A DNA stretch of 64,000 nt from Candidatus Campbellbacteria bacterium (GTDB lineage Bacteria > Patescibacteriota > Minisyncoccia > Phycocordibacterales > EsbW-18): NCBI GenBank assembly GCA_024653945.1, contig JANLIT010000002.1, positions 80,255 through 144,254 on the forward strand, read 5' to 3'. Each line of letters opens with the position of its first letter. Position 1 is the first letter of the stretch. The position numbers and the translations under genes were made by a program. This document shows, one piece after another, positions 1-63,465 of this stretch. The notes under the pieces were generated by a model that did not search any database, had not been told where the DNA came from, and was given only the letters and a program-made list of their open reading frames with translations.

Positions 1-247
1 AAATTACCTTAAGCGTTTGAGTGATTTGGAAAATATTGCTACATCATTTGAAGGTGTTGAGAAAGCATATGCGATTCAAGCGGGACGTGAGATTCGTATT
101 TTCATCAATCCGGAGAAAATTACCGACATTGAAGCAAAAACAATGGCACGCAGTATCGCTGACCGTATTGAAAAGGAATTAAAATTCCCTGGAGAAATTA
201 AGGTTAATGTGATTCGCGAGAATAGAGTTATAGAATACGCCCGGTAG
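1..247 (+). CDS. rny: Ribonuclease Y, C-terminal end; the gene starts upstream of the window
   Basis: The translation ...[54 protein letters not shown] matches the conserved RNase Y C-terminus (GREIRV..PE.I.D.EA...AR.I...IE.EL.YPG.IKVTVIRETRAVEYAK). Stop is at 245-247. Confidence 0.8.
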
Positions 248-1301: not shown

Positions 1302-1373
1302 TATACAATCATTTAATTTTCGGTCACTGAAAGCGACCGTTGCCGCCGCAAGGTGGTGTTTTTGTTTTGTGTG

Positions 1374-1444
1374 TGCGGGATGCCGGAATCGGACCGGCGA
1401 CACCAGTTTGGAAAACTGGAGTTATGCCACTTAACTAATCCCGC
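1374..1444 (-). tRNA. tRNA-Gly (anticodon TCC)
   Basis: On the reverse complement the fold is: acceptor GCGGGAT/ATCCCGC; D-arm GTTA-AGTGGCA-TAAC; anticodon stem CCAGT/ACTGG with loop TTTCCAA (anticodon UCC); T-arm GCCGG-TCCGATT-CCGGC; discriminator A. CCA is not encoded. Confidence 0.75.
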
Positions 1445-1566
1445 CTTCGCTGCGCTTCGGCGGGTAAACCCGCCAGACAATATCCGAACAATACCTACTC
1501 AATGCACAAGCAACACGTAGAAGCATGGTACCAAAAAATTGAGAAACGACAACGCCTACCTACGCA

Positions 1567-1598
1567 GACGCGCCCGCCTCGTATGAGGTGGGCGCGTC
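1567..1598. terminator. 14-bp GC-rich hairpin downstream of the minus-strand acidic ORF
   Basis: Stem GACGCGCCCGCCTC/GAGGTGGGCGCGTC with loop GTAT. No U-run follows. Confidence 0.3.
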
Positions 1599-1622
1599 AA
1601 TCAAGAGTATGTAAAACGTGCA

Positions 1623-1784
1623 CTACTCAGCCGATGAGCCGTCAGCATCTGATTCATCCTCGTCCGCACCTTCTCCATCTTCACCAACCTCAGGTGCCTC
1701 ATCCTCGGGGTCGTTCTCAAGAGGCGTTGCCGCAGGACTTTCATCACCATCTGTTGGAAGTGTAATATCGTCTAAATCTGACAT
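1623..1784 (-). CDS. Small, highly acidic hypothetical protein (53 aa)
   Basis: Translated by hand from the minus strand as MSDLDDITLPTDGDESPAATPLENDPEDEAPEVGEDGEGADEDESDADGSSAE. It falls below the ORF-track length cutoff. Overlapping plus-strand ORFs look like low-complexity artefacts. Confidence 0.35.
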   Translation of the reverse strand: MSDLDDITLPTDGDESPAATPLENDPEDEAPEVGEDGEGADEDESDADGSSAE

Positions 1785-1829
1785 ATATACAATAGGTTAA
1801 TTGGCAATGGTATCCGCATGGTGCGAATT

Positions 1830-1849
1830 CCTGCCTGCCGGCAGGCAGG
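1830..1849. repeat. Perfect 20-bp GC palindrome CCTGCCTGCCGGCAGGCAGG, copy 1 of 2 (26 bp shared with 6636-6655 in inverted orientation)
   Basis: Exact match to 6636-6655, with shared flank AATT-palindrome-CG on opposite sides. It lies 43 bp upstream of the acidic ORF start. Confidence 0.6.
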
Positions 1850-1946
1850 CGCATGAGTATAGCAATGTGTCTGTGTTTGTCAACCAAAATCACCACCATG
1901 TTGCATCAGGGTAATTTTATGCGCCCTTATTTTCTTTATTTTTTAT

Positions 1947-2003
1947 CCCGTTAGAGAATATTTCAATACAACGTCTTGTGTGTCACCCAAGTTCTCTAAC
2001 GGG
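1947..2003. repeat. MITE-like inverted-repeat element, copy a (57 bp)
   Basis: Termini CCCGTTAGAGAA ... TTCTCTAACGGG. Flanked by TTTAT and ATTTAT. Ends 11 nt 3' of the stop of the DoxX-like gene. Confidence 0.55.
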
Positions 2004-2014
2004 ATTTATTACAT

Positions 2015-2395
2015 CTATCGAAACCACTCACGTAGTGTTCGTGGCCACGACAGCATCAACAAAAGTGCGAGAGGGGCTCCCCAGTTTGCAAATCGTTCAA
2101 TGAAATCCCAGATTGATTCTCCAACAATTGGACGAAGAAGTGCGGTCCAAAATCCCCACAACACTGCCCACAACAACACAACGCGAATTGGTTTGAGAAG
2201 AACAACAAGCGCAACAAACATATCAGCAACACCAATCAACATAAGAAGCGTTATTGCAGTACCGAGGTCAGCACCAGTTAATTTTTGTATCCAACCGAGC
2301 CACTGTTCTTTTCCATCAAGGGCTAACATACCATGACCAATAAATTCTCCAGCAACCGCAATTCGCAACACCCACTGAATAAGTTTTGTATTCAT
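2015..2395 (-). CDS. DoxX-like small integral membrane protein
   Basis: The ~127-aa product has 3-4 predicted TM helices (GHGMLAL...LIGVADMFVALVVLL...LWAVLWGFW). The start is taken at MNTKLIQ, whose ATG lies in the left flank of MITE copy b. The ORF track extends to 2443. Confidence 0.45.
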   Translation of the reverse strand: MNTKLIQWVLRIAVAGEFIGHGMLALDGKEQWLGWIQKLTGADLGTAITLLMLIGVADMFVALVVLLKPIRVVLLWAVLWGFWTALLRPIVGESIWDFIERFANWGAPLALLLMLSWPRTLREWFR

Positions 2396-2512
2396 CCCGT
2401 TTAGAGGCAGGTCGCGGTCATTGAAAATTTCCGAAACCTGCAAATTATTCTAGTAAAACAACTACTCATTATCCACCATACAATCCCGGAAGCGACCGCG
2501 GCCTCTAACGGG
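2396..2512. repeat. MITE-like inverted-repeat element, copy b (117 bp), with a perfect 6-bp flanking direct repeat ATTCAT
   Basis: Termini CCCGTTTAGAGGCAGGTCGCGGTC ... GACCGCGGCCTCTAACGGG form a ~22-bp imperfect inverted repeat. ATTCAT sits at 2390-2395 and again at 2513-2518. The left copy supplies the ATG of the DoxX-like gene. Confidence 0.6.
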
Positions 2513-2565
2513 ATTCATGTACTAAAAGTATTAAAAATAAACTACCACACCCAGTGTAGCCTTTC

Positions 2566-2931
2566 TTATTTTTTCTTCCTAGACACTGTGTGAATTGCTT
2601 TTAACACCCACTCTGTAAGCACTTCCCTATCTTCAAGCACGTCTGTGGGAACTTCATAATAGTTTTTCAGCACCTGCTCCTTGCTTGGACGAAAACAATC
2701 CATACCTACGTCAATAAATTTCTGTTTACTTTCGTTATCAGTTTTTACATACAGCACGTTATCAGAAATAATCGCAAAAAATATCCCCTCAGCATACAAA
2801 CCAAAACCACCAAACATTTTTCGTGCGGTTACGTCTGGAATAGCCATAAGCTGATCCAGCACAAAGTCTTTAAATGATTCGTCCACAAGTGTCGGGGCGC
2901 CGAGAATCGGACTCGGTCTATCTGCTCCCAA
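2566..2931 (-). CDS. TfoX/Sxy N-terminal-domain protein (competence-regulator family)
   Basis: KMFGGFGLYAEGIFFAIISDNVLYVKTD matches the TfoX_N hallmark (F.G.GL....fa.i....LYlk.d). Confidence 0.65.
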   Translation of the reverse strand: MGADRPSPILGAPTLVDESFKDFVLDQLMAIPDVTARKMFGGFGLYAEGIFFAIISDNVLYVKTDNESKQKFIDVGMDCFRPSKEQVLKNYYEVPTDVLEDREVLTEWVLKAIHTVSRKKK

Positions 2932-2996
2932 AGCAGACGTACTACCGGTATACTACGCCCCGTAACAAAAACAACAATATCATGTCTATACTGATT

Positions 2997-3401
2997 TTAA
3001 TAGACCCTTTCTTGTTTTATATCATTTTTTCTTTCTTCATCGTGCAATATTCGATGACAATTTGCACAAACAACTTCACATTTATTTATTTCCGACTTAA
3101 TACGCGAGAGACCGACCGCACGACGAAATGTTCCGACTGTAAATAATTTATCTTTTCCATTTTTGTGATGGAAATCAAGAACTCTTGGATCTCCAACTCC
3201 GCACCTACTACACCCTTTTTGTTGTTTGTATTCTAGAATTAATTGATAATAACGATTAATAAGCATTTGTTTTGTAATACGGTAACAATCGCGACACTTT
3301 CTGCGCCTGTACACTTTTTTCTCAGTCGTTAGAGCAACCCCAAAGAAGGACTCTGGGAGCGATTTTCCACAATATTTACAAACTTTTTCGCACTTTTTCA
3401 T
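2997..3401 (-). CDS. HNH endonuclease
   Basis: Cys-rich N-terminus plus DFHHKNGKDK...CEVVCANCHRILH, the HNH motif (His-Asn-His with Zn-binding Cys pairs). Confidence 0.8.
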   Translation of the reverse strand: MKKCEKVCKYCGKSLPESFFGVALTTEKKVYRRRKCRDCYRITKQMLINRYYQLILEYKQQKGCSRCGVGDPRVLDFHHKNGKDKLFTVGTFRRAVGLSRIKSEINKCEVVCANCHRILHDEERKNDIKQERVY

Positions 3402-3459
3402 GTCCCAATCCTAGCGCATCAAGATAAATTTGGGATAAAGTAAAGTATCCCAAATTTTT

Positions 3460-3530
3460 CGGGCCGTCGTATAGTGGCAGTACACAAGGCTGGGGGTCTT
3501 GTAGTGAGAGTTCGATTCTCTCCGGCCCGA
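3460..3530 (+). tRNA. tRNA-Pro (anticodon GGG)
   Basis: Acceptor CGGGCCG/CGGCCCG; D-arm GTAT-AGTGGCA-GTAC; anticodon stem CAAGG/TCTTG with loop CTGGGGG; T-arm GAGAG-TTCGATT-CTCTC; discriminator A followed by CC. Confidence 0.75.
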
Positions 3531-3538
3531 CCGTAGTT

Positions 3539-3958
3539 CTAAAGGACATTCTCAATGAAGAGTGTATGAGCTGTTTTGTCCTTTAGATTAAGTCGAATTG
3601 CCACAACATCTACCTGATACCGTGTTTCACGTGAAATATGTTTCTCAACTAGGTATGTCTGAATTGCCCTAGAAAGTCGCTCGAGCTTTTCACGCGTAAC
3701 GTGTTCCTCAGGTCTGATCATCGAGGTTAAACCTTGATAACCTGTTTCACGTGAAACGACACCGTTCCCTGTTTCGCATGAAACACATTTAACTTCAACA
3801 AATCTCAAAACTTTATTCTTTTGGGCAATAATATCTATCTCTCCCCATTTCTTTAGATAGTGTCTTTCTGTAATCTTAAAACCTCGTTTCACAAGAAACA
3901 GACACGCTAATTCTTCTCCTATTTTGCCTATTTTGATGTGTTTTGGGTCATTTTTCAT
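3539..3958 (-). CDS. YraN/UPF0102-family endonuclease-like protein carrying in-frame palindromic repeat insertions
   Basis: N-terminus GKIGEELACLFLVKRGFKI...WGEIDIIAQKNKVLRFVEVK and C-terminus RYQVDVVAI match UPF0102. The central part contains the repeated peptide VSRET, encoded by GTTTCACGTGAAAC palindromes. Confidence 0.6.
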   Translation of the reverse strand: MKNDPKHIKIGKIGEELACLFLVKRGFKITERHYLKKWGEIDIIAQKNKVLRFVEVKCVSCETGNGVVSRETGYQGLTSMIRPEEHVTREKLERLSRAIQTYLVEKHISRETRYQVDVVAIRLNLKDKTAHTLFIENVL

Positions 3959-4008
3959 GGAAAATAAGATTTCATGTGTAACAAATACCTATATGTTTCA
4001 CGTGAAAC
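3624..4008. repeat. Array of five copies of the 14-bp palindrome GTTTCACGTGAAAC (two exact, three 1-2 mismatch)
   Basis: Copies at 3624-3637 (GTTTCACGTGAAAT), 3744-3757 (exact), 3771-3784 (GTTTCGCATGAAAC), 3886-3899 (GTTTCACAAGAAAC) and 3995-4008 (exact, in the promoter region upstream of the YraN-like start). Confidence 0.7.
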
Positions 4009-4061
4009 ACTTATATCGGACATTATTAGAGACAAATTCTATAATATGGCTTAACTGGGCT

Positions 4062-4118
4062 ATTTTACACTGATATTTGCCTTTATTTTACACATGTCCA
4101 ATTGCCTGTCTTTTACAC
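4062..4118. repeat. Three iteron-like direct repeats (A)TTTTACAC spaced 23-25 bp apart
   Basis: ctATTTTACACtgatatttgcc, ttATTTTACACatgtccaattgcc and tcTTTTACACatatcc. They lie in the divergent region between the YraN-like gene and the tRNA cluster. Confidence 0.4.
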
Positions 4119-4285
4119 ATATCCCCGTTGTTGTCCACAGTTTTAGCCATTTTACCCTTTTAAAATAAAGTTTTCTTAAAGACATGGTTGTTTTGTCTTT
4201 ATAAAAATTTTATCTATTATCTTTTGGTCGAGAGTTGGTTAGAATTTGCTAAATTTTTTTATCTGATTTGCTCACAAAAAGATTA

Positions 4286-4317
4286 TTGACATACAAATTA
4301 TCGTATATTGTTATAAA
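4286..4317 (+). promoter_or_regulatory. Candidate promoter for the tRNA-Gly/tRNA-Arg transcription unit
   Basis: TTGACA at 4286-4291, with TGtTATAAA-like extended -10 elements downstream. The spacing is ambiguous. Confidence 0.3.
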
Positions 4318-4388
4318 CATATGGTAAATTCAGTGAAAATAGATATACTGTTCTTTGCGGTGGACTCGTCCGCCGAACAACGTGCAAG

Positions 4389-4459
4389 GCGGGCATGGTT
4401 TAGTGGTAGAACACGTCCTTGCCAAGGACGAGACGGGAGTTCGATTCTCCCTGCCCGCA
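4389..4459 (+). tRNA. tRNA-Gly (anticodon GCC)
   Basis: Acceptor GCGGGCA/TGCCCGC; D-arm GTTT-AGTGGTA-GAAC; anticodon stem CGTCC/GGACG with loop TTGCCAA; T-arm GGGAG-TTCGATT-CTCCC; discriminator A. Confidence 0.8.
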
Positions 4460-4498
4460 CACAGAAACAGGTTATAATAAATAAAGCTTATTAATGTT

Positions 4499-4570
4499 GC
4501 TCCCGTGGTGAAATGGATATCATGACAGGCTTCGAACCTGTTGTTGGGGGTTCGAATCCCTCCGGGAGCA
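4499..4570 (+). tRNA. tRNA-Arg (anticodon TCG)
   Basis: Acceptor GCTCCCG/CGGGAGC; D-arm GTGA-AATGGATA-TCAT; anticodon stem ACAGG/CCTGT with loop CTTCGAA; T-arm GGGGG-TTCGAAT-CCCTC; discriminator A. Confidence 0.7.
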
Positions 4571-4592
4571 CAGAGTGTAATACAATGTTTTC

Positions 4593-57812: not shown

Positions 57813-58337
57813 CTACTCGGCGTTTGTATACACCTCCTGCACATCATCATTATCTTCAAGTTCTTCAATGAGGCCGGCGAGTTTCATTCCGTCTTCTTCA
57901 GAAAGGGGAATGGTTGTTGATGGCGCCCACCCTTCGGAGGTTTTGGTGAATGCCCAACTTGCCGATCCGGGGGCTGCAAGCGCGAGCCCATTTTCAGAAA
58001 GAAGGTGTTTCATTTCTTGAGATGTTCTGTTTTTGCTATCGGTGAGTCCTTCAATAATAAGCGCACAGCCCCCCGGTCCGTATGCCTCATAGGTTACTTT
58101 TTCATCAGCAACGGTGTTTTGGGCACTTTGTATTGATCGGTCGATATTATCTTTGGGCATATTTGCTACACGCGCTTTTTCAATAGCCGCCTTGAGGGTT
58201 GGTGCGTTGAGGTCACCCTTCGTAACCCGGGCCTCCGTTTTGATGAGTTTCACCAGTTTGGTAAAGAGTTTTCCGCGTTGTGCATCAACGGCACCCTTCT
58301 TTTGCTTTATTTGGCTCCACTTATTGTGTCCGGACAT
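57813..58337 (-). CDS. YebC/PmpR-family DNA-binding regulatory protein (short form)
   Basis: MSGHNKWSQIKQKKGAVDAQRGKLFTKL is the YebC N-terminal signature. Confidence 0.8.
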   Translation of the reverse strand: MSGHNKWSQIKQKKGAVDAQRGKLFTKLVKLIKTEARVTKGDLNAPTLKAAIEKARVANMPKDNIDRSIQSAQNTVADEKVTYEAYGPGGCALIIEGLTDSKNRTSQEMKHLLSENGLALAAPGSASWAFTKTSEGWAPSTTIPLSEEDGMKLAGLIEELEDNDDVQEVYTNAE

Positions 58338-58552
58338 GGTTGATTTTTTAAGAGCTGAGCGATTAAAAAATCTCCACCCCACCCTCTTAATTTATCTAGT
58401 ATATCAAAGAACGGAAGAAATTTTTAGAGGGCGGGGTTCTCAAAAAATATAGTTGCTCGCGAGACTCGCGCCTTATTTTTTGGAAAAACAAAGGACGCAC
58501 CGAGGTGCGTCCGAAACCGTGCCGACATGTAAGCCATTAGAATTTCCAGCAC

Positions 58553-58906
58553 CTACACAGGCGGGCGGGGGGTGAGGTGTGGAGACTTCAGCGCGCGAAG
58601 CTCCATTTGGGAGCCGTGCACAAACCATAACACCAGACCCCCAACAAGACCGAGGATGAACACAAGCCAGTTTGCACGTGAGAGGTCGGTGGTTAGGGGG
58701 TGAAACCTTGTCGCCGGAAAGAGTGGTGAAAAAAGTATCACCAATGCGAATGCCCAGTTTTGCAACAAAAATCCTCCAGACAGGCGCTCAAGAACACATA
58801 GCGCTCCGACCATAACAAGAGGAAACCAAACCGCTTTCAAAAACTCCCACAGAAGGAATGCAAACCACAACACAATCAGGGTTGCCACTTCGCCGAGCGT
58901 TTCCAT
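58553..58906 (-). CDS. Hypothetical polytopic membrane protein
   Basis: Four hydrophobic helices. The start is taken at METLGEV; the ORF track extends to 58987. Confidence 0.35.
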   Translation of the reverse strand: METLGEVATLIVLWFAFLLWEFLKAVWFPLVMVGALCVLERLSGGFLLQNWAFALVILFSPLFPATRFHPLTTDLSRANWLVFILGLVGGLVLWFVHGSQMELRALKSPHLTPRPPV

Positions 58907-59056
58907 AAGTACCCTCCTTTGGAAAACAACACCGAGAACGTCTCTGTCTCTGAAGGTACCACCAGCGCTGTGTAATGCAATAGCCAAAGAAAAAGCCCCG
59001 CCTTAGCACAAAGTGCTTCGGCTGGGCGAAAGAACATCTTTTTTGCCAAGGCTCTC

Positions 59057-59656
59057 TTAGATATTGTATTCATCAACCAAAAAATGAGAGCCACCCGATA
59101 TCACCCCAGGCCCCTCAGTTGGTGGAGGTGGGGTCTTCTCTTCCTTGGGCCAGTACAACTTGATGGAGTACTTACCCTCGGCGGTCTTGAGAACTTCGTA
59201 GCCAGCTTCTTCGAGCGCCTTGCAGAGATTGAAAAAAATCTCCTGGTACCCCTTGAATGACGTGGTTGCGCTCTCGCTTCTTTCGCGAAGACTGAGGCTT
59301 GGCTCGCGGGCTTGAGACACCTCCGTTTGAAGATCACTGGCAATCTTCGATCCAAGACGAAGATTTACAGCAAGCTTGGTGAGTTTCTCATCAACTTCAT
59401 TTTGTCCGATGAACGAGCTTCGGATGATGAGCTCGTTCCGAAGCTCTTTGAGTTTCTTCAGGATGAGGAAGGTAAGAAGAACAATTCCCATACATCCAAG
59501 AGAAAAGAGGACAATGATATTGGAATCGGTTGGAACACCATCTCGAAACGCCAACATTCCGATGGATGTGAGTACAAACAGAGTACAAGCACCCCACAAT
59601 CTTTTTGTGACAGAGACATCCGACAAATCATATTTCAAATCTCGTTTCACATCCAC
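59057..59656 (-). CDS. Hypothetical membrane protein with two TM helices (199 aa)
   Basis: TM helices LWGACTLFVLTSIGMLAF and IIVLFSLGCMGIVLLTFLIL, followed by a coiled-coil-like C-terminus. Confidence 0.4.
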   Translation of the reverse strand: MDVKRDLKYDLSDVSVTKRLWGACTLFVLTSIGMLAFRDGVPTDSNIIVLFSLGCMGIVLLTFLILKKLKELRNELIIRSSFIGQNEVDEKLTKLAVNLRLGSKIASDLQTEVSQAREPSLSLRERSESATTSFKGYQEIFFNLCKALEEAGYEVLKTAEGKYSIKLYWPKEEKTPPPPTEGPGVISGGSHFLVDEYNI

Positions 59657-59790
59657 CTCCTCCCGCTTTTTGCGGGTGACGTTCCCGCCACAATGGGCCC
59701 ATGAGATCTGCTCGTGAGCAGAGACGATCCGCGCCTCTCAAGGAACATTCGAAACAACAATACGCTTTTGGAGCGTGGTGTCAATCGTAT

Positions 59791-59828
59791 AGAAAAAGCC
59801 CCGCCGCGCACTTGCGTGCAGGCGGGGC
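59791..59828 (-). terminator. GC-hairpin terminator for the 59835-60125 gene
   Basis: GCCCCGCCGCGCAC-TTGC-GTGCAGGCGGGGC. The minus strand has a U-run after it (plus-strand A-run at 59793-59797). Confidence 0.55.
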
Positions 59829-59834
59829 GGGGCA

Positions 59835-60125
59835 TTAGCCACCAGTCGTTCCTCCCAATGAGGGGGAATTCGGAAGCTTCGTCCCGGGCCAGAATTCCTT
59901 CTCGAATCGCTCGGCATCCTCCTGAACTCTGCGGATGATCTGTGCAATCACGGCCCGCAATTTCTCCGGCGAGTCGAACTGGGCCAAGGTGCTCAGCCGT
60001 TCGGAGATGAGAATGGCGGGCATCATCACCTGGGGCGGGGTTCCCACCTCGTACAACCTTCTGAGGATGTAGTCGGCGTGGTACTTGATGAGCTCTTCGT
60101 CACCCTGCAGTCGAGTTTCGGGCAT
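59835..60125 (-). CDS. Hypothetical protein (96 aa)
   Basis: Intact ORF with a downstream terminator. Confidence 0.4.
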   Translation of the reverse strand: MPETRLQGDEELIKYHADYILRRLYEVGTPPQVMMPAILISERLSTLAQFDSPEKLRAVIAQIIRRVQEDAERFEKEFWPGTKLPNSPSLGGTTGG

Positions 60126-60193: not shown

Positions 60194-61255
60194 CTACAGG
60201 AGTGACTCTTGATCAGCTGGTTTTGCACCAATATGTGCACGTCCTTTACCTGTAATGATACGTCCGCGAGGGGAGCGTTCAATAAAACCAAGTTGCATGA
60301 GATATGGTTCGTACACTTCTTCAATAGTTGCGGAGTCTTCTGACAGAGAAGCTGCAAGTGTTGAGAGTCCGACGGGTCCGCCGTTGAACGTGTCAACAAT
60401 AAGTGAAAGTAATTTTTGGTCTGTCGGCGTGAGTCCGCACTCATCAATACCAAGAAGTGTGAGGGCGTCGAGCACAACCTCGTGTGTAACATCTTTTTTG
60501 TGTACTTGTGCAAAATCGCGCACGCGTTTGAGCAAATAGTTTGCTGTGCGTGGTGTTGAGCGGCTTCGTTTTGCAATTTCTTTCAATGCGGAAGCATCGG
60601 CCTCTACGCCAAGCAGTTTCGCTGAGCGTTTGAGAATAGAAAAAATTTCTTCGTCAGTATAAAACTCCAATCGAAACATTCCTCCAGAAAAACGTGAACG
60701 AAGTGGAGCAGAAAGAAGTGCAATGCGCGTTGTTGCGGCAATCAAGGTGAATGGTGGAAGATCCAATTGCACCGTGCGTGCTGACGGACCCTTGCCGATG
60801 ATGATATCGAGACGCCCCGACTCCATGGCGGGGTAGAGAACTTCTTCAATTGCAGGATTAAGACGATGGATTTCATCAATAAACAAAATATCGTTTGGTG
60901 AAAGATTGGTGAGCACCGACGCGAGGTCACCAACGCGTTCAATTGCTGGGCCCGAAGTAATTTTAATTGCGTTGTTCAGTTCGTGAGCAATGAGGTGTGC
61001 AAGTGTTGTCTTTCCAAGACCCGCCGGTCCATAAAAAAGGATATGTTCTGGTGCATGCCCGCGCTCTTTTGCGGCAGACAATAAAATATGAAGGTTGTCT
61101 TTTGTTTGAGATTGTCCGATGTACTCGTTCCAGTGAGTTGGGCGAAGAGAAGCATCCAAATACACATCGCGGATTTCTTTTGGGGTCTCCTCGGCGGGTT
61201 TTTTGGAGGGACTTGAGCCCGTTAGAGTTTTTTCTTTATCGGAAAAAGATGTCAT
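60194..61255 (-). CDS. ruvB: Holliday junction branch-migration ATPase RuvB
   Basis: [12 protein letters not shown], Walker [12 protein letters not shown], Walker [11 protein letters not shown], sensor motifs. The alternative start at 61333 would add 26 aa. Confidence 0.88.
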
Positions 61256-61316
61256 AGGAGTATGTGCCCATTTTACAGGGTATTTTGATGTGGTCCAAGA
61301 TAAAACTTTAACGGGC

Positions 61317-61345
61317 TTGACATTCTCAATCAAGTATGCTAGGAT
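61317..61345 (+). promoter_or_regulatory. Sigma70-type promoter TTGACA-17-TAGGAT driving an unannotated plus-strand transcript
   Basis: cTTGACAttctcaatcaagtatgcTAGGATact. Confidence 0.45.
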
Positions 61346-61351
61346 ACTGTT

Positions 61352-61658
61352 GTTCTTTTCAGAAGCGGTTTCAGTAAGGGGTGGCGCACGGAAAGTCCTC
61401 TCAAGAGGAACGAATATTTTCTCGTGCTTACTTAACAGACAGGCGAGAAACCTCTAAGCAAACGTCATGGTCACATGCACAAAGTCGGTGAGGACCCGTT
61501 GGTTGTCTCGATCTCGCATCGAGGTAGCGAACAGTATCCTGAACAGATAATGTGGTTTTGCTTAGAGATTTCTCTTCTGTTAACCTACCCTTTATACTAC
61601 TCGTTATTAAGAAATAAGGAAAGCCACACCATATACTGCGGTGTGGCTTTCTTGTTTT
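61352..61658 (+). ncRNA. Candidate ~300-nt structured ncRNA of unknown identity
   Basis: Bounded by the promoter at 61317 and the terminator at 61621-61658 (AAGCCACACC...GGTGTGGCTT plus a U-run). It contains GGAAAGUCC (61389-61397) and ACAGAUAAUGUGGUUUUGCUUA near the 3' end, faint RNase P RNA-like motifs. It has no long ORF. Confidence 0.35.
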
Positions 61659-61749
61659 GTAAAGTTTTTGTTTTCTAACCACCAACCCCTTACTTCTAAC
61701 TTCCAATATCTATTATTTTGGAGCGGGTCTTTTGTGTTTTGTCTACTTT

Positions 61750-63465
61750 TTAGATTTCAGGTGTTGGTGGTGCAGCTTTTTCTTCGGTTGTTAAATCCAC
61801 CACACGCTCAATTTCCTCAAGTGTTGTTTTGCCTTCAAGGACTTTCATAACACCATCTTGAGCCAGTGTGAGAAGACCTTGAAGGTCCGCAGCTTTTCTA
61901 ATTTCACGTTCAGATGGTGAGGATTCAATAATGTCTTCAATTGCGGCGTTCACGATAATTCCTTCATACAAACCCATACGACCCTTATATCCAAGGCCGT
62001 TGCATGCCTCACAGCCACCCTCTCCTGCATGCCACACACGTTCTCGTTGTAGGCTTGCTATTTTACTTGTATCAACAACGGTTCCGAGAACGGCATCAAT
62101 TTTTTCTTTTTCAACACCCTCGAGAGGTACTTCTTTTTTACATTTTTCACAGAGTATTCGCACAAGTCGTTGTGCAAGTGCAAGTGTAAGAGCAGAACCT
62201 AAAATACGAGGATTGATTCCAATGTCGATAAGTCGTGTGAACGCTCCAGCAGCAGAGTTGGTGTGGAGTGTTGAGAACACAAGGTGACCGGTGAGTGCGG
62301 CGTGAATGGCAATTTCCGCAGTTTCATTGTCTCGAATTTCACCCACCATGATGATGTCAGGGTCTTGTCGAAGGGCCGCACGTAGTCCGCTTTGAAATGT
62401 GTAATCGTGCCCACTATCAACCTGCGTTTGGACGACACCCTTCAAGTGATACTCGATTGGGTCTTCAATGGTGATAATTTTGATATCGGGCGTGTGTACT
62501 TTTTTGAGGAATGCGTACAGTGTCGTTGTTTTTCCTGAACCCGTTGGACCAGTAGTGAGAATAAGTCCATTTGGTTTGGCAATTGCAGCGGTTATAATTG
62601 CAAACAAATCATCGCGCATACCAAGCCTTTCAATAGACACAGAGATTGAGTCAGGGTTTAAAATACGCATTACGATAGACTCACCATATTGACCAGGAAG
62701 AATTGATGTACGAATTTCAATACTGATATCTTTAAAATTGATACTAAAACGACCGTCCTGTGCCTCGTTTTGTACGTTGAGCTTGAGGGTTGAGAGAAGT
62801 TTAAAACGTGAAAGTACAAGGTGATATGTTTCCGAATCAATCGTTGCCACATCGGCGAGCACACCGTCCACTCGCATACGAACACGAACATCTTTTTCCT
62901 CGGGTTCTATGTGGATGTCGGATGCTTTTGTTGCAAGGGCACTCGAAAGAAGTACTTCAATAATTCGTGAAATACGGTGTGTCTTTTGCATGGCGAGTGC
63001 TTCCACAAAGAGTTTTTTGATGTCTTCAAGATGTCGTACTTGTGCAACAAGCGCGGTCATGTCTTCAGATCCAATATCGAGCATTCCCTTTTTGCTTCCC
63101 GCTGTGTATGAAAGATCTTTATATCTGTCCCACACAAATGCAAGGCTGTGTGTTGAGGTAAGAGAGAGTGTCGGAGTGAACCCACGACTCTCAAGCTCGG
63201 CAAGAACTGTTTTTGTTGCTGGATTTTCTGGTGCGTGTACCGCCACACTGAGCGCTTTTCCTGTGAGTCCAAACGCAGCAATCATCCCTTCGCGCGCCGA
63301 TTTTTCTGGAATGATAATAAGCGCGTCTGGATTAATTGGAGAAGAGGTGAGGTCAATGTACGGTATAGAATATTTATTTGAAAGCATGTGCATCAAATCC
63401 TCCTCCTCTTGTTCGCGGAGTTGCTCGAACTTTTTATTTTGTTTGTCTTCGTCAAAGGTAATCAT
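61750..63465 (-). CDS. pilB: Type IV pilus assembly ATPase PilB / GspE family
   Basis: N-terminal GSPII_E_N domain, Walker A TGPTGSGKTTTL, Asp box, His box, and the tetracysteine CEKC...CEAC motif. Confidence 0.85.
   Translation of the reverse strand: MITFDEDKQNKKFEQLREQEEEDLMHMLSNKYSIPYIDLTSSPINPDALIIIPEKSAREGMIAAFGLTGKALSVAVHAPENPATKTVLAELESRGFTPTLSLTSTHSLAFVWDRYKDLSYTAGSKKGMLDIGSEDMTALVAQVRHLEDIKKLFVEALAMQKTHRISRIIEVLLSSALATKASDIHIEPEEKDVRVRMRVDGVLADVATIDSETYHLVLSRFKLLSTLKLNVQNEAQDGRFSINFKDISIEIRTSILPGQYGESIVMRILNPDSISVSIERLGMRDDLFAIITAAIAKPNGLILTTGPTGSGKTTTLYAFLKKVHTPDIKIITIEDPIEYHLKGVVQTQVDSGHDYTFQSGLRAALRQDPDIIMVGEIRDNETAEIAIHAALTGHLVFSTLHTNSAAGAFTRLIDIGINPRILGSALTLALAQRLVRILCEKCKKEVPLEGVEKEKIDAVLGTVVDTSKIASLQRERVWHAGEGGCEACNGLGYKGRMGLYEGIIVNAAIEDIIESSPSEREIRKAADLQGLLTLAQDGVMKVLEGKTTLEEIERVVDLTTEEKAAPPTPEI

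Follow-up and report, generated by a model that had tools for sequence, protein, structure and literature searches.

A putative structured RNA gene between pilB and ruvB belongs to an uncatalogued family of Paceibacteria-type CPR bacteria

Gene organization of the pilB-ruvB locus

We analyzed a 64,000-nucleotide stretch of a Candidatus Campbellbacteria contig (the window, to which all positions refer). The ruvB and pilB genes both lie on its minus strand, separated by a 494-bp intergenic gap, in which a promoter, an ORF-poor stretch, a hairpin and a UUGUUUUGU tail were all found on the plus strand. The features of the locus, with the stems numbered P0 to P3, are:

60194-61255, minus strand: ruvB, context gene, divergent from the RNA
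61270-61297, minus strand: ruvB promoter-like site TGGACC-16-TAAAAT, back to back with the RNA promoter (a consensus match only)
61317-61345, plus strand: RNA promoter, with -35 TTGACA at 61317-61322, a 17-nt spacer ending in TGC and -10 TAGGAT at 61340-61345
61352-61660, plus strand: predicted primary transcript of ~300 nt, its 5' end placed ~7 nt past the -10 box and its 3' end at the U-tract
61376-61382, plus strand: P0 outer stem, 5' strand AAGGGGU, pairs with 61587-61593; only in the window and the related contigs L081 and L084
61383-61428, plus strand: 5' accessory hairpin, enclosed by P0, specific to the subgroup of the window, L081 and L084, and absent in L086, L087 and L090
61438-61462, plus strand: P1 closing stem, 5' strand, with the family signature CUCUAAGCAA at 61452-61461
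61466-61477, plus strand: P2, small 5' hairpin CAUG GUCA CAUG, with an A-U to G-C change in L089
61478-61554, plus strand: P3 long arm, in which AGGAC (61491-61495) faces UAUCCU (61535-61540), with a wobble-rich inner helix
61557-61581, plus strand: P1 closing stem, 3' strand, with UUGCUUAGAG at 61558-61567; it includes the GCUUA singled out in an earlier, sequence-only reading of this DNA
61587-61593, plus strand: P0 outer stem, 3' strand ACCCUUU, pairs with 61376-61382
61619-61660, plus strand: intrinsic terminator, a 12-bp GC-rich stem with a 9-nt loop followed by UUGUUUUGU
61750-63465, minus strand: pilB / T2SSE ATPase, context gene, convergent with the RNA

The sequence-only reading had described a promoter-to-terminator unit without an ORF between ruvB and pilB, and all the features it described were indeed located. 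The ~270 to 300 nt between promoter and terminator, on the plus strand and antisense to pilB and ruvB, contain no conserved or credible ORF. Only short ORFs (27 to 92 aa) occur in the RNA region, and these are disrupted in relatives: ATGGTCACATGCACAAAG reads ...ACATAG in L081 and L084, which breaks the ORF, and the 27-codon ORF of the core gains a stop codon in relatives. A small-protein gene was rejected because neither the 27-aa nor the 92-aa ORF is conserved among relatives. The element is single-copy within the window, and this uniqueness together with its syntenic position ruled out a repeat or mobile element. Downstream of the terminator lies the stop codon of pilB, on the opposite strand. 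Judged by its sequence features, the ORF-free stretch appears to be a real, separately transcribed and highly folded non-coding RNA gene.

On the other side of ruvB, three ORFs without a Pfam match (144, 199 and 96 aa) occupy 58553-60125, between ruvB and yebC (57813-58382), with local GC of up to 0.63. As ruvB, yebC and ruvC are contiguous in relatives, this interval looks like an insertion of ~1.8 kb.

Promoter and terminator of the RNA

A promoter scan gave the RNA promoter 10 of 12 consensus matches plus an extended -10 TG. A match in a single sequence is weak evidence alone, because shuffled sequence already leads one to expect 1.6 ± 1.3 promoter-like sites per 1.2 kb, and three were observed. 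What makes the promoter convincing is its conservation across homologues: on the RNA strand, 98 of 104 homologues are preceded by an exact TTGACA-(16..18)-TAnnnT, with the TG present in 95 of those 98.

The terminator stem GAAAGCCACACC/GGUGUGGCUUUC (61619-61651) is formed by pairing of 61619-61630 with 61640-61651, and the hairpin is maintained in relatives by compensatory changes. This separate terminator is present in the subgroup of the window, L081 and L084; in many family members a U-run follows P1 directly. The terminator may also end minus-strand pilB transcripts, for which the tail would be CUUAUUUCUU. At the other end of the gene, the first ~15 transcribed nucleotides (ACUGNUGUUCUUUUCAGAA; window 61346-61363) are conserved in the window clade (L081 to L090), even in members without the 5' domain that follows them.

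Homologues and their genomic context

The RuvB protein of the window falls in the Patescibacteria, and its best match among the species-representative genomes is 68% identical. Closer RuvB proteins, with 78 to 91% identity, led to contigs L081 to L090, which show a gap of 300 to 590 bp upstream of ruvB with pilB beyond it in most. In L089, ddl and another gene intervene between the RNA and the pilB side, which indicates that the RNA stays with ruvB. Alignment of these relatives showed a nearly invariant core of ~145 nt with diverging flanks.

A single-sequence nhmmer search against 80 ruvB loci of species-representative genomes gave no match, and homologues in those loci emerged only with covariance models. 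The first model (R1), of the core from the close relatives, picked up weak matches in more distant genomes, which lay upstream of ruvB in unchanged position and polarity and shared CUCUAAGCAA...UUGYUUAGAG. A metagenome scan with this motif pair returned at least 120 loci. Among the matches listed, ruvB lay directly beside the element in 93 of 120, with the element upstream of ruvB in one polarity throughout, and the matches without ruvB were contig ends or unrelated palindromes. Perfect palindromes CTCTAAGCAATC...GATTGCTTAGAG were seen in L096, L124, L153 and other ruvB-less matches, on contigs that are not CPR-like; they are probably unrelated repeats that match the pattern by chance.

Genomes and metagenomes supplied at least ~100 distinct homologues. 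Wherever the sequence permits a check, these sit in the pilB-ruvB interval and run antisense to both genes. Of 80 loci that could be evaluated, 69 have pilB as the convergent neighbor of the RNA. A second covariance model (R2), of 64 diverse members, recovered the RNA from Nomura-, Kaiser-, Sung- and Colwellbacteria-type loci, again upstream of ruvB, and found nothing in the ruvB loci of Gottesman-, Roizman-, Uhr-, Doudna- and Peribacteria or of non-CPR bacteria. The window scored 75 bits with R2 (E of about 4e-18) and 163 bits with R1. It carries the features by which we define the family, namely P1, P2 and P3 with AGGAC/UAUCCU and CUGG/CUGG, an own promoter, and a position between pilB and ruvB on the opposite strand.

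That the 10-bp core of P1 looks invariant is in part an effect of ascertainment, since the metagenome scan required that core and divergent members with another P1 seem to exist (L010 and L013 to L016), with closing stems such as GGGCAAU/AUUGCCC in L013 to L016. In L010, L013, L015 and L016 (positions ~2650-2990, opposite ruvB) we observed long inverted repeats with different closing stems, for example GGGCCGUGGGCAAUUA/UAAUUGCCCACGGCCC, and L010 also has an ATGTCAA ruvB start. These repeats are probably divergent members that were missed or weakly scored by the P1 pattern and R2. From these comparisons, the RNA is predicted to belong to an uncatalogued family that occupies the same spot in many Paceibacteria-type Patescibacteria (CPR). 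A literature search found no description of this RNA.

Fold and domain architecture

The plus strand from 61350 to 61660 was predicted to fold at -114.4 kcal/mol (z = -6.8), and none of 100 shuffles was equally stable. The several local stems noted previously were thus borne out, and long-range stems were found in addition. Double changes were present in 14 of 54 predicted pairs among only seven close sequences, including AA/UU to GG/CC in P1 and A-U to G-C in P2 (L089). We then used a clean covariance-model alignment (A6) of 94 members with 45 model pairs: 92.1% of the cells were paired, 36 of the 45 pairs had changed on both sides, and 589 cells were compensatory. These statistics were reached in 0 of 500 column shuffles, and a control in which the partners were slid by 1 to 3 columns gave at most 50% paired. 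Folded individually, 78 of 104 members adopted a closing stem with three branches.

P1 is a closing stem of 25 to 28 bp with the core CUCUAAGCAA/UUGYUUAGAG. In P3, AGGA/UCCU surrounds an internal loop of C against UA and is followed by a wobble-rich helix built on facing CUGG motifs (C-G, U.G, G.U, G-C). The apical hairpin of P3 (61505-61525) is variable, and ACAGAUAA (61543-61550) lies in the variable part of its 3' strand. Most family members are ~150 to 180 nt long, and most have a fourth, 3' hairpin, P4 (CUUU.../...AAAG), giving a 4-way junction. The window clade is without P4, and the 3' strand of its P3 is GCGAACAG, as opposed to CUGGGNC elsewhere. The 5' accessory hairpin includes GGAAAGUCC (61390-61398), which lies in a local stem UCCUC/GAGGA, and one pair of the enclosing P0 stem (28/264) is A-U, U-A and G-C across the window, L081 and L084. 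The window clade appears to have lost P4, and the subgroup of the window, L081 and L084 appears to have gained the P0-enclosed 5' hairpin.

The P2 loop reads GGUCCUCA(U/C) in L086, L087, L089 and L090 (e.g., minus strand of L086:3727-3876), a sequence complementary to the 5' strand of the P3 motif, GUGAGGACC. The two form an alternative 9-bp helix in the minimum-free-energy fold, of which the window retains only part. Going by these modelled folds, the alternative helix could be a conformational switch.

The functional strand

At successive variable positions of the closing stem, the ratios of G.U to A.C on the RNA strand were 33:3, 36:3, 29:0 and 18:6, and about one third of the members have G.U in the P1 core. 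The R2 scores were approximately twice as high in the plus sense (e.g., 127 versus 58 bits), and the minus strand folded less well than the plus strand over the same 237 nt (-77.2 versus -86.0 kcal/mol). The G.U bias, the model scores, the promoter and the U-tracts all point to an RNA encoded on the strand opposite ruvB and pilB, the plus strand of the window. A DNA palindrome, operator or uptake sequence was rejected on the grounds that G.U in the P1 core makes the DNA repeat imperfect and that RNA pairing is kept on one strand only.

The palindromic character of the element also admits a reading in which the minus strand is functional, as a structured intercistronic element or terminator in a pilB-ruvB mRNA, and the plus-strand gene is an illusion. 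The element does lie between two co-oriented genes, and sub-regions of the minus strand fold at z values of -4.7 to -6.1. However, the asymmetry between G.U and A.C, the two-fold higher covariance-model scores in the plus sense, and the near-perfect conserved promoter and U-tracts on the plus strand are all at odds with it, and we consider it very improbable.

Comparison with known RNA classes

Rfam 15 at gathering thresholds reported only five tRNAs in the whole window, all elsewhere. ARAGORN likewise gave no tmRNA and only five tRNAs elsewhere in the window, and tmRNA was rejected for want of both an ARAGORN and an Rfam match. The five tRNA genes (Gly-UCC, Pro-UGG, Pro-GGG, Gly-GCC and Arg-UCG) are clustered at 1373-4571 on both strands. 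At E ≤ 10 with relaxed filters, the Rfam search of 61150-61850 returned only noise, mostly on the terminator hairpin, with no RNase P, SRP, 6S or tmRNA. Rfam searches of 18 other member loci at E ≤ 10, and of 10 long related loci, gave nothing consistent. The sequence-only reading had named a lack of Rfam hits as a result that would speak against the RNA. There was indeed no match; nonetheless, the RNA appears real and merely uncatalogued, which makes the absence of an Rfam match the wrong test.

Of the identities proposed in that reading, a reduced RNase P RNA was rejected, and we give it next to no credence. Its basis was the motif GGAAAGUCC (61390-61398) together with ACAGAUAA..GCUUA (61543-61564). 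Both do occur in the window, but they vary in close relatives: GGAAAGUCC becomes AAAAAGUCC in L081 and L084, with the entire 5' domain missing in L086, L087 and L090, and ACAGAUAA becomes ACCGAUAA, ACAAACAA or AUAAAACU. Their bases also pair elsewhere, GGAAAGUCC in a local hairpin and ACAGAUAA..GCUUA in P3 and the 3' strand of P1. In the window, the P4 helix of RNase P, from CR-I GGAAAGUCC and CR-V (ACAGAA..GGCUUA), is not formed, as both motifs are held in other helices supported by covariation. The specificity domain (CR-II/CR-III, P10-P12) is absent; most members, at only ~150 to 180 nt, have nothing beyond P1 to P4. A point in favor of this identity is that CPR RNase P RNAs have diverged and can fall below the Rfam thresholds, as a published survey reports (PMC8172020); yet in that survey such diverged RNAs were still recovered by Rfam models at lowered thresholds, whereas the present locus had no model match even at E ≤ 10. 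The cis-regulatory leader offered as another option did not hold, as nothing is encoded downstream on that strand and convergent pilB comes next in 69 of 80 loci. The remaining option, a stand-alone small RNA, agrees with the conserved promoter, the terminator, the covariation and the strand-specific G.U pairs.

A diverged SRP RNA (4.5S/scRNA) or another known housekeeping RNA is suggested by the overall hairpin shape and by two sequence resemblances: GGUGGCGC..AGUCC in the window is presumably Alu-like, and the GUUGGUU../..GUAGC stretches are reminiscent of E. coli 4.5S RNA. This identity is extremely unlikely, however, given that no Rfam SRP model matched, that the Alu-like 5' domain is limited to three close relatives, and that the apical loops are variable (CUCGC, GUUUAC, GAAAG, UUCG...), without the conserved GNAR loop and symmetric-loop motif. 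A divergent 6S-type RNA, that is, a rod that would bind the RNA polymerase holoenzyme by mimicry of an open promoter, has somewhat more in its favor. Most members have a suitable length of 150 to 180 nt and are mostly double-stranded, with two long coaxial arms (P1 and P3) and small central hairpins; the promoter is strong, the gene is single-copy, and neither the 64-kb window nor ~140 kb of related loci yielded a 6S RNA, which is weak evidence. On the other hand, no Rfam 6S match appeared at E ≤ 10, and at the center, linkers of ~2 to 5 nt join the helices in a tight 3- or 4-way junction, in place of a large single-stranded bubble. P3 stacks directly on P1 in the window clade, and P2 and P4 are supported by covariation. 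Mainly for lack of a central bubble, we regard a 6S-like role as unlikely.

Overlap of the RNA promoter with the ruvB start

Most relatives begin ruvB with ATGTCAAG, whose reverse complement forms the -35 region of the window, CTTGACAT (61315-61322). With TTGACAT in the promoter, 86 of 104 members share this arrangement: their -35 box is ATGTCAAG (ATG TCA AG) read on the opposite strand, and the first codons of ruvB therefore make up the -35 box of the RNA promoter. Compact members have only ~45 to 56 nt from P1 to the ruvB ATG, and no convincing conserved -35/-10 for ruvB was found within or beside their RNA gene. Across the family (e.g., L105, L131 and L146), the ruvB ATG has nothing resembling a Shine-Dalgarno sequence in front of it. 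A TAGCA(T/C) hexamer, the complement of the TG-C-TA of the RNA promoter, is located at about -21 to -16 of the ruvB ATG and could serve as the -10 element for a near-leaderless ruvB mRNA.

The window differs in its ruvB start. Its -35 region still reads CTTGACAT, but the ATG there leads into an out-of-frame ORF of just 16 codons; ruvB itself starts at 61255, ~65 nt from the -35 box, and its N-terminus is 12 residues longer than in L081. The ancestral ruvB start ATGTCAAGCCC persists as the -35 region of the RNA promoter (61312-61322, minus strand). The candidate -10 of the ruvB promoter-like site is retained in L084 (TAAAAT) and L086 (TAGAAT). On either side of the rearranged ruvB-start segment lie the arms of an inverted repeat (61213-61228 / 61306-61322; GAGCCCGTTA / TAACGGGCT), which appears to mark the rearrangement. 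Since the ruvB start of the window lineage has moved ~65 nt from the -35 box, the interlock is not essential for retention of the RNA.

Proposed role

We consider it fairly probable that 61317-61660 (plus strand) is an independent gene for a structured non-coding RNA of ~300 nt, from an uncurated family of Paceibacteria-type CPR bacteria, and that its product is a putative stable, protein-binding RNA interlocked with ruvB. Our best guess for its function, going by the sequence comparisons, is a stable protein-binding small RNA interlocked with ruvB expression. It would act through its fold, as a stable and abundant RNA, with the invariant helix and internal-loop motifs forming a specific protein-binding platform. 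The suggestion of a platform comes from the conservation pattern, because the conservation of helices and internal loops exceeds what stability, termination or antisense pairing would need; the AGGAC/UAUCCU and CUGG/CUGG internal-loop sequences are conserved across lineages whose RuvB proteins are only ~65% identical. In members with the overlap, RNA polymerase bound to the promoter of the RNA would cover the start of ruvB, and ruvB or pilB-ruvB transcripts begun upstream would be antisense to the RNA. This physical interlock would make transcription of the RNA and expression of ruvB mutually dependent. A contribution in cis to the expression of ruvB, and of pilB, is plausible from the promoter/start-codon overlap and the antisense position.

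The strict position beside ruvB could even reflect a purely cis role. In that case, the RNA would run head-on to pilB-ruvB read-through or the ruvB leader from a promoter that covers the ruvB start codon, and pairing with the sense transcript, or polymerase collision or occlusion, would set the expression of ruvB and of the 3' end of pilB; the fold would serve mainly stability and termination. The invariant position and polarity between pilB and ruvB fit well with this, as do the overlap of the -35 box with the ruvB ATG in 86 of 104 members and the spacing of ~45 to 56 nt from P1 to ATG in compact members, which leaves no clear room for a separate ruvB promoter. P1, placed between an A-tract and a U-tract, furthermore resembles a bidirectional terminator. 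However, compensatory changes preserve P1, P3 and P4, whose G.U pairs are confined to the RNA strand, the conserved AGGAC/UAUCCU and CUGG/CUGG sequences go beyond what an antisense RNA or a terminator needs, and the window clade retains the RNA although its ruvB has gained a separate start and a promoter-like site. We take a purely cis antisense or interference role to be a minor but real possibility. A more specific idea builds on the analogy with 6S RNA, which mimics an open promoter: a 4-way-junction RNA with its promoter fused to the ruvB start codon might be a structure-specific partner or decoy of the Holliday-junction machinery, binding Ruv or another junction-recognizing protein in an autoregulatory loop or, more modestly, might be the RNA of a lineage-wide CPR housekeeping RNP. 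This idea is quite unlikely. The stable protein-binding RNA interlocked with ruvB remains the reading that we prefer.

Relation to known systems and significance

CPR/Patescibacteria have tiny genomes and few known regulators, and to our knowledge hardly any lineage-specific non-coding RNA has been reported from these bacteria. The present data describe a CPR RNA family supported by covariation, with at least ~100 distinct members, a fixed genomic address and a near-consensus promoter, and the covariance model now permits its annotation. The fusion of the -35 box to the ruvB start codon is unusual and makes the coupling of the RNA to recombination and pilus genes directly testable. A false lead is also removed, in that the pilB-ruvB region is not to be annotated as RNase P RNA in these genomes: the likeness to RNase P RNA (RF00010/RF00011) consists of two short sequence resemblances in the window genome alone, and the family RNA is without P4 of RNase P, CR-I to CR-V, an S-domain or a model match.

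Among the known systems, 6S RNA (RF00013) is similar: it too is a rod of about 150 to 300 nt from a single-copy gene with a strong promoter, and a long closing stem joins its 5' and 3' ends. The pilB-ruvB RNA differs in having neither the large central bubble nor an Rfam match, and shows conserved helix sequences and a 3- or 4-way junction instead. Bacterial Y RNAs (YrlA/Yrn1) also combine a long conserved closing stem with a multi-helix junction domain, whereas the pilB-ruvB RNA has no Rfam match and no recognized tRNA-like T-loop motif, and its neighbors are pilB and ruvB as opposed to rsr/rtcB. Cis-encoded antisense RNAs and overlapping divergent promoters (e.g., riboswitch-controlled or constitutive) likewise lie opposite co-oriented genes, with a promoter over the translation start of the neighbor, and it is this overlap that makes interference or pairing plausible here. 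Compared with them, the pilB-ruvB RNA is elaborate and supported by covariation, with conserved internal loops; it terminates before pilB, and its overlap with a sense transcript is putative. The orphan structured non-coding RNA classes (raiA motif, OLE, ROOL/GOLLD; Breaker/Weinberg-type motifs) are likewise stand-alone, supported by covariation, restricted to lineages and found in a conserved genomic context. The pilB-ruvB RNA matches none of these in Rfam 15. It is smaller than OLE, ROOL and GOLLD, is confined to Paceibacteria-type CPR bacteria, and has its promoter fused to the ruvB start codon. The pilB-ruvB RNA is thus a new family of a familiar general kind, the orphan structured bacterial small RNAs, with an unusual genomic interlock.
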